From Candidatus Methylomirabilota bacterium (GTDB lineage: Bacteria > Methylomirabilota > Methylomirabilia > Rokubacteriales > CSP1-6): a stretch of 64,000 nucleotides of DNA. Under the pieces are notes generated by a model. The model saw nothing but the letters and a program-made list of their open reading frames with translations. It was not told the DNA's origin and did not search any database. Position 1 is the first letter of the stretch. Each line of letters starts with the position of its first letter. A program made the translations under genes and the position numbers. The stretch spans positions 6,835-70,834 of the forward strand of contig DASTOJ010000305.1 of the NCBI GenBank assembly GCA_035762565.1. The letters run 5' to 3'. Below are positions 2,622 through 53,517 of this stretch, one piece after another.

Positions 2622-2696
2622 TGGTGGCGGTGGGAGGAATTGAACCTCCGACACGGGGCTTATGAGACCCCTGCTCTGCCGCTGAGCTACACCGCC
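2622..2696 (-). tRNA. tRNA-Met (anticodon CAT), elongator-type. Could alternatively be tRNA-Ile2 (lysidine-modified CAU).
   Basis: Reverse complement reads GGCGGTGTAGCTCAGCGGCAGAGCAGGGGTCTCATAAGCCCCGTGTCGGAGGTTCAATTCCTCCCACCGCCACCA. The cloverleaf is complete: 7-bp acceptor GGCGGTG/CACCGCC, D-arm GCTC..GAGC, anticodon loop CTCATAA, T-arm GGAGG-TTCAATT-CCTCC, encoded CCA. The 1:72 pair is G:C and the anticodon-stem 31:39 pair is T-G, not the three consecutive G:C pairs expected of an initiator, which argues against an initiator tRNA. Confidence 0.85.
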
Positions 2697-2895: not shown

Positions 2896-3192
2896 ATGCT
2901 GTTCCGCACGCATCCTTGGCAAGACGGACCTGTGCTCCGCAGCAACGACGTCGAGGACGACGACGGGTTCGACGACGAGGTGCTGGACGACGACGCCGAC
3001 GACGAGCTCGACGACGACGAAGACGAGGAAGACGTGCTGGAGACCGACGAGACCGACGAAGCCGACGAGGACGACGAGGACGACGACGAGCTGGACCTGG
3101 ACGACGACGAGCTCGAGGAGGAGGAGGAGGAAGAAGACGACGAGCTTGACGACGACGAGCTCGAGGACGAGGAAGACGACGACGACAAGTAG
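2896..3192 (+). CDS. Hyper-acidic small protein (98 aa, about 70% Asp/Glu, e.g. DDDELDLDDDELEEEEEEEDDELDDDELEDEEDDDDK).
   Basis: ORF 2791..3192. Start chosen at the ATG at 2896, preceded by GGAGGaacc (an RBS, 8-nt spacing). Low-complexity GAC/GAG codon repeats. The antisense poly-Ser ORF is rejected. Confidence 0.5.
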   Translation: MLFRTHPWQDGPVLRSNDVEDDDGFDDEVLDDDADDELDDDEDEEDVLETDETDEADEDDEDDDELDLDDDELEEEEEEEDDELDDDELEDEEDDDDK

Positions 3193-3221
3193 CTCCTCAT
3201 TCGGGTTGGGAGGCGCTTGCA

Positions 3222-13424: not shown

Positions 13425-13925
13425 ATGCCGGCGCCGGTGACCTATCGCGGCATGTCGCTGGTGATTCCCGACAACGACAGCGAATGGAGCGAGTACTTCG
13501 CGCACGCGCGACAGCACCGGCTGATGGTGCGCGCCTGCGCGGCGTGCGGTCTCCTGCGCTATCCGCCCACCCACGCCTGTCCGTGGTGCATGGAGCTGGG
13601 CTGGAGCTGGACGGAAGTGAGCGGACGCGGGACGATCCATTCCTACGAGATCGTCATGCACGCGATCCAGCCCGGCTTCAAGGAGATCACGCCCTACCCG
13701 ATCGTGCTCGTGGAGCTGGACGAGCAGCGCGGCCAGCCCTCTCCCGACGAGGGGCTGCGGATCATCGCCAACCTCGTGAAGCCGGACTTCACGCCCGAGG
13801 GCGAGGACAACGTCGCGATCGGCAAGCGGGTGCGCGTCGTGTTCCAGGACCTGGCCGATCATTTCGCCCTGCCCCAGTTCACGCTCACCGACGAGCCCCC
13901 CCAGGGCCGCGTCTGGCGGCTGTAG
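13425..13925 (+). CDS. DUF35 / Zn-ribbon plus OB-fold protein (166 aa), the usual partner of SCP-x thiolases.
   Basis: Rubredoxin-like CxxC..CxxC (CAACGLLRYPPTHACPWC) followed by an OB-fold region, immediately downstream of the thiolase. Confidence 0.75.
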   Translation: MPAPVTYRGMSLVIPDNDSEWSEYFAHARQHRLMVRACAACGLLRYPPTHACPWCMELGWSWTEVSGRGTIHSYEIVMHAIQPGFKEITPYPIVLVELDEQRGQPSPDEGLRIIANLVKPDFTPEGEDNVAIGKRVRVVFQDLADHFALPQFTLTDEPPQGRVWRL

Positions 13926-13968
13926 TCTCCGCCGGACCACTGCGAGCACCGGCCTCCCGGCGGGCATG

Positions 13969-14082
13969 GGGCCACCACGAGGCCCTGGCGCAGGATCGAG
14001 GCGCGCCCCCGGCTCCACCGGGGCGCGACGAGCGTCGGGGGGGTGTGGGGGGCCATCTCGGGGCCCCCCACCTCAATCGGGC
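13969..14082. repeat. Intergenic GC-rich palindromic repeat, copy A (about 115 bp). Contains a CGACGAGCGTCG mini-palindrome, a G7 run and a perfect 8-bp GGGGGGCC/GGCCCCCC hairpin (14047-14069).
   Basis: About 80% identical to 47761-47875, including a shared GATCGAGGCGCGCC...CCGGGGCGCGACGAGCGTCGGGGGGG core. It fills the convergent spacer between the DUF35 gene and kefB. Confidence 0.7.
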
Positions 14083-46204: not shown

Positions 46205-46828
46205 ATGCTAAGCCGCTGCGCGCACGTGACGATAACGTCGCTGCTGCTCACCGGTGTGATCCTGGCGGGGTGCGCGAAGCGGCCTGCGACCACGCAGGCG
46301 GCGGCCCCCGCGCCGACCGGTGCGGCAGCGACGACGGCCGGCTCCCCACCCGCCACCGCGGCGGCGCAGCCTTCGACGTCGGCGGGCGCAGGGACGGGAG
46401 CGGGTGGAGCGGCCACGGCGGCGCCAACGGGCCCGGGCCCGGCGACAGCCGCCGCGCCGGCGCGCCCGGACCCCAAGGTGTTCGTGCCGGTCCCGGAGCT
46501 GAAGGACATCCACTTCGACTTCGACAAGTACGACATCCGTCCCGTGGACGCGAAGGTCCTCGACAGCAACGCGACCTGGCTCAAGTCGAACCCCAACCAC
46601 CTCATCCTGATCGAAGGGCACTGCGACGAGCGCGGCACCAACGAGTACAACCTCGCCCTCGGCGAGCGCCGTGCCAAGTCGACGATGAACTACCTGGTCT
46701 CACAGGGCGTCCAGGCCAGCCGCATCACGATCATCAGCTACGGTGAGGAGCGGCCGGCGTGCGCGCAGAAGAACGAAGAGTGCTGGGCCAAGAACCGTCG
46801 CGCACACTTCCTCGTCAAGCCGCGCTAG
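46205..46828 (+). CDS. pal: Peptidoglycan-associated lipoprotein Pal (OmpA family), 207 aa.
   Basis: RBS AAGGAGG. Lipobox LAGCA. OmpA_C motif (IEGHCDERGTNEYNLALGERRA). Confidence 0.85.
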   Translation: MLSRCAHVTITSLLLTGVILAGCAKRPATTQAAAPAPTGAAATTAGSPPATAAAQPSTSAGAGTGAGGAATAAPTGPGPATAAAPARPDPKVFVPVPELKDIHFDFDKYDIRPVDAKVLDSNATWLKSNPNHLILIEGHCDERGTNEYNLALGERRAKSTMNYLVSQGVQASRITIISYGEERPACAQKNEECWAKNRRAHFLVKPR

Positions 46829-47742
46829 CGCCCGCCGGGTGGGCGGCACGGCGGCGCGGGCGCCGCGCCGCGGGGTTGTCCGCCATCGGGCTGGTCTTCC
46901 TCGCCGGTTGCGCCAGCGTCGCCGACGTCACCGGCACCGCGACGCAGGAGGACCTCATGCAGCTGCGGGCCGAGGTCGCGTCGGCGCAGCAGACCGCCCA
47001 GCGCGCCCGCAGCGAGGCCGAGGGTGCGGCGGCGCGCGCCGTGGACGCACGGCTGCGCGCGCAGAGCACCGAGGGCGAGCGTCAGCTGGCCGCGCTGAAC
47101 CGGCGCCTCGACGGCCTGACCACCTCGCTGACCGAACTGGGCACGCGGGTCGACGAGCTGGCCTCGCGCGTCGACGCGGTGGGCCGCCAGCTCAAGAGCG
47201 CCGCCCCCGCCGCTCCAGCCGCTCCAGCCGCACCTCCGCGGACCACGACACCCACGGCGCCCGCGACCGCGCCGCCGCCCGTCCCGGCCCCCGCGGGCAC
47301 ACGGCCGGCGACGAATGCGCTGCAGCCACAGGACATCTACCAGGCCGCCTACATCGACTTCAGCAAGGGGAGCTACGCGCTGGCCATGGCGGGCTTCCGC
47401 GAGTTCCTGCGCCGCTTCCCGGAGCACCCCCTCGCGGGCAACGCCCAGTACTGGATCGGCGAGTCGCACTTCAGCCTCGCTCGGAGCCACGTCAACGCCG
47501 GGCAGACGGACAAGGCGGTCCAGGAAATGGAGCAGGCGGTCCTGGAATTCCGGAAGGTGCTGGCGAACTACCCGCGCGGAGAGAAGGCCCCGACCGCGCT
47601 GTACAAGGAAGCGCTGGCGCTGCTCGACCTCAAGCAGCCAGGACTGGCGCAGCAGCGCCTGGAGTATCTCGTCGCCAATTTCCCCCAGGCCGAGGAAACA
47701 CCGCTCGCCCGCGATCGCCTCGCCACCCTCAAAACTCGCTGA
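46759..47742 (+). CDS. cpoB: CpoB/YbgF (Tol-Pal-associated coiled-coil plus TPR protein), about 320 aa. Start ambiguous (GTG 46759 or 46780).
   Basis: Signal peptide with LAGCA, coiled-coil (LRAEVASAQQTAQRARSE...), C-terminal TPR-like YbgF region (YQAAYIDFSKGSYALAMAGFREFLRRFP). The reading frame overlaps the pal 3' end by 50-70 nt. Confidence 0.75.
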   Translation: MRAEERRVLGQEPSRTLPRQAALAPAGWAARRRGRRAAGLSAIGLVFLAGCASVADVTGTATQEDLMQLRAEVASAQQTAQRARSEAEGAAARAVDARLRAQSTEGERQLAALNRRLDGLTTSLTELGTRVDELASRVDAVGRQLKSAAPAAPAAPAAPPRTTTPTAPATAPPPVPAPAGTRPATNALQPQDIYQAAYIDFSKGSYALAMAGFREFLRRFPEHPLAGNAQYWIGESHFSLARSHVNAGQTDKAVQEMEQAVLEFRKVLANYPRGEKAPTALYKEALALLDLKQPGLAQQRLEYLVANFPQAEETPLARDRLATLKTR

Positions 47743-47760
47743 GGGGCTTGCTCGGGGATG

Positions 47761-47875
47761 GGGCCATCTGGAGGCCCGGGCGGGTGATCGAGGCGCGCCA
47801 CGGCTTCCGCCGGGGCGCGACGAGCGTCGGGGGGGCTTGGGGGGCCCTTCGAGGCCCCCCCATGTAGTCAATCCA
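47761..47875. repeat. Intergenic GC-rich palindromic repeat, copy B. Contains the 8-bp GGGGGGCC/GGCCCCCC hairpin at 47839-47860, a likely bidirectional terminator between ybgF and the anti-sigma gene.
   Basis: About 80% identity to 13969-14082. The hairpin loop differs (CTTCGA versus ATCTCGG) while the stem is preserved. Confidence 0.7.
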
Positions 47876-53447: not shown

Positions 53448-53491
53448 CGGGCTCCGCCCTCCGAGGGTCTCCATCCTACCGCACCCGGCCA

Positions 53492-53517
53492 CGCGGGGGC
53501 CCTTCGGGCCCCACGCG
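53492..53517. terminator. Strong GC hairpin (CGCGGGGGCCC-ttc-GGGCCCCaCGCG) between the small Arg-rich protein gene and the MBL gene.
   Basis: 7-8 bp G:C stem. Its loop/stem resembles the hairpin of the 13969/47761 repeat family (GGGGGCCCTTCG(A)GGCCCC). Confidence 0.35.

Follow-up and report, generated by a model that had tools for sequence, protein, structure and literature searches.

Two intergenic spacers in a 64,000-nucleotide stretch of a Candidatus Methylomirabilota contig (DASTOJ010000305.1; the whole stretch is called the window below) carry a similar GC-rich palindromic sequence, and this raises the question of whether they belong to a repeat family and, if so, of which kind. An earlier note had described the two convergent spacers as about 80% identical over some 115 bp. 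A repeat search recovered them as a single direct pair (positions 13961-14070 and 47753-47862), which matched over 110 nt at 81% identity without gaps. We designate them copy A and copy B, and our reading is that they are members of a mobile palindromic repeat family of the Rokubacteria/Methylomirabilota that resembles REP elements (repetitive extragenic palindromes) and bacterial interspersed mosaic elements (BIME). We put the probability of this reading at roughly 0.8. The family has apparently not been described before, since literature searches on Rokubacteria combined with REP or repeats, and on the core sequence, yielded no description of the element, and the founding Rokubacteria genome paper is silent on repeats.

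Distribution, structural conservation and insertion polymorphism

When copies A and B were aligned with MAFFT, we observed 80% identity across about 180 columns. The 26-mer CCGGGGCGCGACGAGCGTCGGGGGGG occurs exactly in both copies and had no match in 100 dinucleotide shuffles. A covariance model of the first of the two hairpins of the element (H1), run over the 64-kb window with filters off, gave 66.5 bits for copy B and 61.5 bits for copy A (E about 1e-14). The next-best match in the window reached 15.8 bits, and thus there are exactly two copies in the 64 kb. Both are located on the + strand and both between convergent 3' ends, in a window of about 72% GC.

To place these copies in a wider context, a species-representative genome collection (one genome per species) was scanned with a 21-nt core. 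Here, we found the 21-mer GGGGCGCGACGAGCGTCGGGG at 63 loci, and 60 of these were in 19 assemblies of the Rokubacteria/Methylomirabilota. The other three loci (two metagenome-assembled genomes of Actinomycetota and one Mycobacterium) matched in the 21-mer alone and were read as chance. Since the core of about 21 nt is almost clade-specific, it can be used as a practical marker. A profile hidden Markov model built from 49 copies (nhmmer) gave 130 hits in 514 kb of fetched loci plus the window, a density that is biased upward because the fetched loci had been picked for holding a copy. Typical copies were also present in two contigs (L013, L030) that are binned as 'Candidatus Acidoferrum sp.' SMAG_U12481 (Acidobacteriota), and these are either mis-binned Rokubacteria contigs or a genuine occurrence outside the phylum. 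Viral contigs gave no family hits, and an origin from a phage or plasmid was dropped for this reason.

At least 10 copies lie at contig termini, and a Logan contig from an independent assembly of the window's own strain (L144) ends inside the second hairpin (H2) of copy A. Such breaks are typical of a repeat that fragments short-read assemblies, and the family explains the fragmentation of Rokubacteria short-read assemblies, in which contigs end inside the repeat. The Rokubacteria, uncultured bacteria that are abundant in soil, have unusually large genomes, for which a non-coding share of 8-17% has been reported (PMC5712423), and the repeat family explains part of this non-coding DNA.

Both hairpins are maintained by compensatory substitutions, and the structure is therefore under selection. 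For H1, 60 distinct segments were compared, and two-sided changes were present in 6 of the 13 pairs (32 cells). The observed values were not reached in any of 500 column shuffles, and all slid registers scored lower. The changes included C:G to G:C and the reverse at the apical pair, C:G, A:U and G:C at the basal pair, and U:A and A:U elsewhere. H2 was analyzed by hairpin extraction from each copy, since RNAalifold on the MAFFT alignment muddled this hairpin owing to misregistered G-runs. The lengths of its G-run and C-run vary in step, its closing pairs covary (T-A, AT-AT, GT-AC, CT-AG, TT-AA), and a variant of the form GGGGGGC-GCCCGGA-GCCCCCC retains pairing. The folding energy of the single sequence was ordinary for its base composition (z = -1.1, + strand), and for this reason the structural argument rests on covariation. 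A strand test by wobble pairs (39 G.T against 21 A.C on the + strand) was not used because the sample was anchored on the 3' arm and thereby confounded. The terminal G:C hairpin that the earlier note had described, with its stem kept and its loop differing, is real. The first candidate of that note, a structured repeat family of the REP/BIME kind, gains support from the many copies in 19 species-level genomes, from the compensatory changes in both stems and from the insertion polymorphism described below.

For the copy B site, we surveyed 80 metagenomic loci (L numbers) encoding YbgF-like relatives with 53-80% identity. In L065-L073 and L076, the ybgF stop and the stop of the convergent anti-sigma gene are 0-4 nt apart and no element is present; the empty allele of L076 reads TGA-GAGG-TCAATCC. 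The same spacer carries an element in + orientation in the window, in L064 (which matches the L023 genome), L078, L101 and L103, an element in - orientation in L104 and L108, and a divergent subfamily in L110 and L114. At the copy A site, the gene pair is conserved in L146, L147 and L148 (82-88% protein identity) with an empty spacer of 13-25 nt, and L145 has a 116-nt spacer with a different single unit. A third site, between pal and ybgF, holds a 102-nt copy in - orientation in L067, L069 and L116, variants in L070, L073, L075, L086 and L072, and remnants in L076 and L078. No copy is present there in L065, L066, the window and L064. Since the flanks of L066 and L067 are 97-100% identical, the 102-nt insertion in L067 is recent. 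Because orthologous sites are either empty or filled by different copies in either orientation, we conclude that the element inserts or is precisely lost.

The pal/ybgF inserts lie next to an annotation problem. Matches joined by tblastn gave the impression of in-frame insertions into the YbgF-like coding sequence (L067, L069, L070, L075 and others), which we do not claim. In the DNA alignment, the conserved 'N-terminus' turned out to be the out-of-frame 3' end of pal, and the insert lies about 15 nt past the pal stop. The sole canonical YbgF-like start, a GTG at window position 46759, falls within pal, about 70 nt before the 3' end of that gene at 46828. Inserts of 102-129 nt lie between this GTG and the lipoprotein signal peptide (L067:445-700, L069, L070, L073, L075, L086 and L116 compared with L065/L066), and all variants except L073 hold the frame and differ by in-frame indels. 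Since the only canonical start lies upstream and all variants but one are in frame, translation of the insert may still be considered: as judged from the reading frames, either the inserts would be translated as a long extension preceding the signal peptide or the real start would be non-canonical.

In other lineages, the ybgF/anti-sigma spacer contains unrelated long perfect palindromes of about 190-290 nt (L094:1430-1760, L100, L141, L107; also L111, L119, L129, L130, L135 and L137). One example is GGAAGGCGGGGGGAGGCCCGGGGCCCTCTGCGAC...GTCGCAGAGGGCCCCGGGCCTCCCCCGCCTT, and a further motif is AAGCCCGAAAGGGCT. Apparently, small palindromic elements of several families have a hot spot in this spacer.

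Anatomy of the unit and its arrays

The unit of the family is about 80 nt long and reads (G)ATCGAGG, H1, (G)ACGAGCGTC, G5-7, YTT, H2 and AT(G/C)TAATCA. An information profile of 101 copies showed conservation from ATCGAGG to about 9 nt past the C-run. The consensus of H1 is (C/A)GCGCC(A/C)CGGC-loop3-4-GCCGGGGCGCG and that of H2 is G5-7CC-loop4-8-GGC5-7 plus 1-4 covarying closing pairs. The most invariant segment of the whole family is CGAGCG in the central motif. A second subfamily of H1 has a longer stem, GGAGCGCC...GGCGCTCC, and has lost GACG, with CTCC or CCCC instead. The two ends of the element, ATCGAGG... and ...ATGTAATCA, are not inverted repeats, and the palindrome tails of the family are CCTCGAT for H1 (- strand) and ATNTAATCA for H2. 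In the window, the two copies are composed as follows.

13968-14077, + strand: copy A, whole composite of degenerate H2', linker, 5' box, H1, central motif, G-run, H2 and tail (nhmmer 13995-14070, 51 bits; covariance model 13995-14040, 61.5 bits)
13968-13985, + strand: copy A H2', weak hairpin GGGGCC-ACCACGA-GGCCC (aligns to H2 of the unit consensus with a score reached by 22 of 1000 shuffles)
13994-14001, + strand: copy A 5' box GATCGAGG, start of family-wide conservation (in the profile of 101 copies, information sets in at ATCGAGG)
14002-14027, + strand: copy A hairpin H1, CGCGCCCCCGG / CCGGGGCGCG with loop CTCCA (from folding; extended by TCG 13996-13998 / CGA 14029-14031)
14027-14036, + strand: copy A central motif GACGAGCGTC, two head-to-head CGTC tetranucleotides 2 bp apart
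14037-14043, + strand: copy A first G-run, G7, conserved and outside the H2 stem
14045-14071, + strand: copy A hairpin H2, GTGGGGGGCC-ATCTCGG-GGCCCCCCAC (from folding; closing pairs covary family-wide)
14072-14077, + strand: copy A tail CTCAAT, which holds the stop of the Kef-type gene
47760-47870, + strand: copy B, whole composite (nhmmer 47787-47860, 53 bits; covariance model 47787-47832, 66.5 bits)
47760-47777, + strand: copy B H2', GGGGCC-ATCTGGA-GGCCC (alignment score reached by 37 of 1000 shuffles)
47786-47793, + strand: copy B 5' box GATCGAGG
47794-47819, + strand: copy B hairpin H1, CGCGCC-A-CGGC / GCCG-G-GGCGCG with loop TTCC (from folding and covariation)
47819-47828, + strand: copy B central motif GACGAGCGTC
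47829-47835, + strand: copy B first G-run, G7
47838-47862, + strand: copy B hairpin H2, TGGGGGGCC-CTTCGA-GGCCCCCC(C)A (from folding; closing pairs covary family-wide)
47862-47870, + strand: copy B tail ATGTAGTCA, which holds the stop of the anti-sigma gene

It can be seen that the shared stretch of about 115 bp noted earlier exists, but it is not a single unit. Its first 45 nt (GGGGCC-ACCACGA-GGCCC plus linker in copy A) align to H2, and the same H2' module sits between successive H1 cores in the arrays of L055, L062, L023 and L033. For these reasons, we interpret each window copy as a composite of about 1.3 units, which comprises one unit of about 80 nt preceded by the decayed H2 of the preceding unit.

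The arrays are organized head-to-tail in one orientation and consist of whole units or of H1 alone. Three modular builds were observed: (H1)n-H2, repeating every 44-47 nt (L019, L048); H1 joined to a short G-rich linker, repeating every 60 nt (L051); and (H1-H2')n, repeating every 85-87 nt (87 in L050 and L011; 85-86 in L023 and L054). We rejected a CRISPR array as explanation, since the arrays repeat the whole period of 47-87 nt without unique spacers (L050, L023, L051). Single copies also vary internally. The H1 loop has a 28-nt insertion in L064:3560-3619 and a 10-nt insertion, TGGCGCAGCC, in the spacer copy of L145. In L063:390-440, H2 is replaced by about 20 G, CGCG and about 15 C, for which homopolymer expansion or an assembly artefact is possible.

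The G5-7 run directly 3' of CGTC is conserved in the whole family although it is not part of the H2 stem. Pairing with the C-run in an alternative conformer or a role as a protein-binding site is conceivable. A G-quadruplex at G7-N3-G6 was dropped by inspection: most copies have G5-6 runs, which do not provide four G3 tracts and the loops between them, and the hairpin formed with the C-run is a competitor.

A further hairpin in the window, CGCGGGGGCC-CTTCG-GGCCCC(A)CGCG at 53486-53517, had been regarded as related. It resembles H2 in its G5CC/GGC4 core, but membership in the family was not borne out: 54 of 1000 shuffles reached its score and the profile misses it. It lies in a spacer of about 45 nt between two co-directional genes on the - strand and has no H1 or CGTC part. 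A solitary remnant of H2 and an unrelated hairpin between cistrons are both conceivable.

Placement at gene ends and rival explanations

Copy A is flanked by a gene for a ChsH2-type OB-fold protein (stop 13923-13925) and by a Kef-type cation:proton antiporter gene on the - strand (stop 14073-14075), the product of which is 100% identical to an NCBI protein of a Methylomirabilota metagenome-assembled genome. Copy B follows a gene for a YbgF/CpoB-like tetratricopeptide repeat (TPR) lipoprotein at the end of the tol-pal cluster (stop 47740-47742) and is followed by a zf-HC2 anti-sigma gene on the - strand (stop 47868-47870). In both copies, the - strand gene has its stop codon (TGA) in the TCA of the tail, and the C-terminus of the Kef-type protein departs from its orthologues exactly where the copy A tail overlaps the stop. 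Here, a small mobile element has rewritten gene ends, and its tail provides the stop of the neighbor in both window copies. Near the tRNA gene at 2625-2696 (- strand), the window also contains a GAC/GAG-rich segment (2931-3196) with periods of 9-15 nt, which resembles the coding sequence for an acidic, Asp/Glu-rich protein tail rather than an intergenic repeat.

We classified 50 clusters of copies by their neighbors. The coding strand of the flanks was deduced from the phase of GC content at third codon positions, and this method was checked on the known genes of the window. We found 15 clusters in convergent spacers and 1 in a divergent spacer; of the co-directional ones, 16 were sense and 18 antisense. 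Since any genome has as many convergent as divergent spacers, the ratio of 15:1 (binomial p about 3e-4) indicates that gene 3' ends are truly preferred to promoter regions, whereas the 16:18 ratio indicates no orientation preference relative to transcription. A confinement to convergent spacers was not borne out, since 34 of the 50 clusters lie between co-directional genes. Copies also occur between operon genes, such as the liv transporter genes in L014, and the genes near copies and between inverted copies are ordinary housekeeping genes.

If the family is of the REP/BIME kind, its copies would have spread as non-autonomous selfish DNA and the hairpins would be the substrate of a trans-acting enzyme. 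The hairpin-specific HUH/Y1 transposase of the 'RAYT' type, which acts on single-stranded DNA, would be a precedent, and that an HUH/Y1 enzyme mobilizes the present family is possible but doubtful. REPs of the CGTC type are not known to have a transposase. The near-invariant CGAGCG(T)C-G-run core would be a candidate site for protein recognition. When transcribed as part of a 3' untranslated region or of intercistronic RNA, the very stable stem-loops might in addition stop 3'-5' exonucleases or hamper transcription running from one convergent gene into the other. For copies A and B, we consider a host-relevant RNA effect of this kind a tentative proposal that is more doubtful than probable.

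Several observations weigh against the REP/BIME-like reading. No gene of the RAYT/IS200 type was found in about 830 kb of fetched loci, although this is a weak test (tblastn with two Y1-transposase queries). There is no clear target-site duplication or fixed target motif. At the best resolved junction (L066/L067), part of the H2 3' arm coincides with the target and an imperfect repeat of 9-10 nt flanks the insert, and a search for filled/empty pairs over all loci returned essentially the ybgF locus alone, with ambiguous junctions. The near-complete long contigs CAVUPM01 (1.8 and 3.3 Mb) carry the exact 21-mer at one locus each. The copy counts, 2 in the 64-kb window and 130 in 514 kb of loci selected for copies, refer to these stretches. 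BIMEs are mosaic clusters with REPs in alternating orientation, and RAYT genes are flanked by inverted REPs, whereas the arrays of the present family run head-to-tail and its palindromes face each other within the unit only. Because H1 subfamily 2 has no GACG tag, not every copy can be described as a head-to-head pair of CGTC-tagged palindromes.

A bolder version of this reading, which we consider unlikely, would be that the family comprises phylum-wide and still active non-autonomous single-strand elements, which are recognized as hairpins and have neither a RAYT nor a known transposase. Their CGAGCG(T)C-G-run core would be recognized by an undiscovered enzyme, and gene ends would routinely be remodelled, with stops being donated and copies possibly surviving in frame in the N-terminal coding region. 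If this is true, identification of the Rokubacteria enzyme would also explain the movement of 'orphan' CGTC-type REPs in other phyla.

Among the rival explanations, we first considered a host terminator or 3'-end mRNA stabilizer, perhaps bidirectional, that is conserved by descent at convergent gene ends. Such a function would fit the very stable hairpins within 0-20 nt of stop codons, the excess of convergent over divergent placement and the tail after H2, which is AT-rich in a 72% GC genome. However, a terminator scan found no intrinsic terminator on either strand at either copy and there is no U-tract, so that the bidirectional terminator proposed earlier lacks canonical support. Moreover, relatives keep convergent gene pairs with spacers of 0-25 nt without the element, which argues against a conserved requirement, the sense:antisense ratio is balanced, and multi-unit arrays are not needed by a terminator. 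As the origin of the family, this explanation is improbable, but the element may have acquired an RNA role secondarily.

A miniature derivative of an insertion sequence (IS) is an equally low-ranking candidate. It would be either a MITE (a miniature transposable element with inverted repeats) or a palindrome-associated transposable element (PATE) of the IS200/IS605 type with subterminal hairpins, and it would be moved by the transposase of that IS. A PATE would be expected to lack terminal inverted repeats and a target-site duplication and to insert in a strand-specific manner beside a fixed motif of 4-5 nt. The family is insertion-polymorphic, copies A and B share one strand, an H2-like hairpin in the same orientation is located near each end of window-type copies, and many copies finish with ...AATCA(A) (at the 3' end, ...TCA(A) is a frequent sequence), which recalls the short motifs at which IS200/IS605 ends are cleaved. 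On the other hand, no fixed flanking motif was established and no parent IS was found in the PATE comparison. A MITE in the strict sense was rejected, since there are no terminal inverted repeats beyond TGAT...ATCA and no consistent target-site duplication, the imperfect repeat at the L066/L067 junction not being one of fixed length. No transposase gene adjoins any copy examined in the fetched loci, viral contigs gave no hits, and Rfam, including any IS-associated RNA families, was unmatched.

That the copies are small RNA genes or a sequence-specific cis-regulatory RNA motif is highly improbable. The covariation of the structure would be expected of such RNAs, and there is a weak likeness to the two-hairpin small RNA BjrC68 (- strand; 15.3 bits, with the gathering score at 39). 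For BjrC68 and for gyrA RNA, however, nothing more than a two-hairpin architecture is shared below threshold. The only threshold match of the Rfam scan of the window was a tRNA, and at the copies the best sub-threshold hits reached 14-17 bits as compared with thresholds of 34-45. No promoter-like site was found at the copies, orientation is random relative to the neighbors, presence varies at orthologous sites, tandem arrays occur, and the copies are always at 3' ends and not in 5' leaders. A chance segmental duplication of a GC-rich spacer within the genome, for which the presence of only two copies in the 64-kb window might speak, can be dismissed, since dozens of copies are found in 19 other species-level genomes and the similarity stops at the element borders.

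Comparison with known repeat systems

We return to the REP/BIME-like family. The element works like a REP/BIME and resembles dimers of the CGTC type; it is a new family of a familiar kind. REP/BIME sequences as a class are short imperfect GC-rich palindromes, usually present in more than 100 copies per genome, that are extragenic, lie for the most part between co-directional or convergent genes and are rarely located between divergent ones. Enterobacteria and Pseudomonas reportedly harbor REP/BIME and REPIN-RAYT systems, which are said to have been described by Nunvar in 2010 and by Bertels and Rainey in 2011. The Rokubacteria family shares with these systems the extragenic palindromes occurring as singles, doublets or clusters, the character of non-autonomous mobile DNA and the breakage of short-read assemblies. 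In contrast, it has no GTAG tag, and no RAYT gene flanked by its copies was detected in the weak tblastn test mentioned above.

Pneumococcal BOX elements have the structure boxA-boxB(n)-boxC, and mycobacterial MIRU have a fixed orientation and contain small open reading frames (ORFs) by which translation is coupled. The variable number of internal modules, (H1)n-H2 and (H1-H2')n, and the arrays of 45-90-nt units between operon cistrons (liv genes, L014) recall these elements, but there is no sequence similarity, and the Rokubacteria family occurs in either orientation whereas MIRU orientation is fixed. With Rickettsia palindromic elements (RPE) and other REPs located in ORFs, it shares the location of an L067-type 102-nt copy inside the sole YbgF-like ORF with a canonical start, the frame being held except in L073. 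Unlike an RPE, the insert lies between the pal stop and the signal peptide and may be 5' untranslated or intercistronic rather than translated.

The closest likeness is that to the CGTC-tagged REPs described by Di Nocera, De Gregorio and Rocco (2013, PMC3733652). According to that paper, these are palindromes with a terminal CGTC, mostly arranged head-to-head and often as hetero-dimers; the tag, CGTC (or TGTC/CCTC), sits unpaired at one palindrome end. They are described there as lying between co-directional and convergent genes near stops, as sometimes donating the stop and as sometimes occurring at the N-terminal end of annotated ORFs, and the account of CGTC and GTAG REPs gives no associated transposase gene for the CGTC type. 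The Rokubacteria family agrees in its two different GC-rich palindromes head to head about 2 bp apart (GACG-AG-CGTC in the majority subfamily), its placement bias, its donation of stop codons, the lack of an adjacent transposase and copies at the N-terminal end of annotated ORFs. The differences concern details. For CGTC-1 to CGTC-4, that paper gives stems of 8-9 bp in which A/T pairs come first, 4-5 nt in the loop and CCA as the tail, whereas the Rokubacteria stems have 10-13 bp with only G/C at the H1 base, the H2 loop has 4-8 nt and the tails differ. In addition, H2 is split from CGTC by a conserved G-run of 9-10 nt, H1 subfamily 2 has no GACG, and the phylum is absent from the hosts listed in the accessible text. 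Since the details of CGTC-1 to -4 are not matched, H1 subfamily 2 has no tag and a G-run precedes H2, we file the repeat as a new family and not as a member of the published CGTC group. REP-like elements with a CGTC-type junction are thereby extended to another deep-branching lineage, where they are still an instance of a well-known class.

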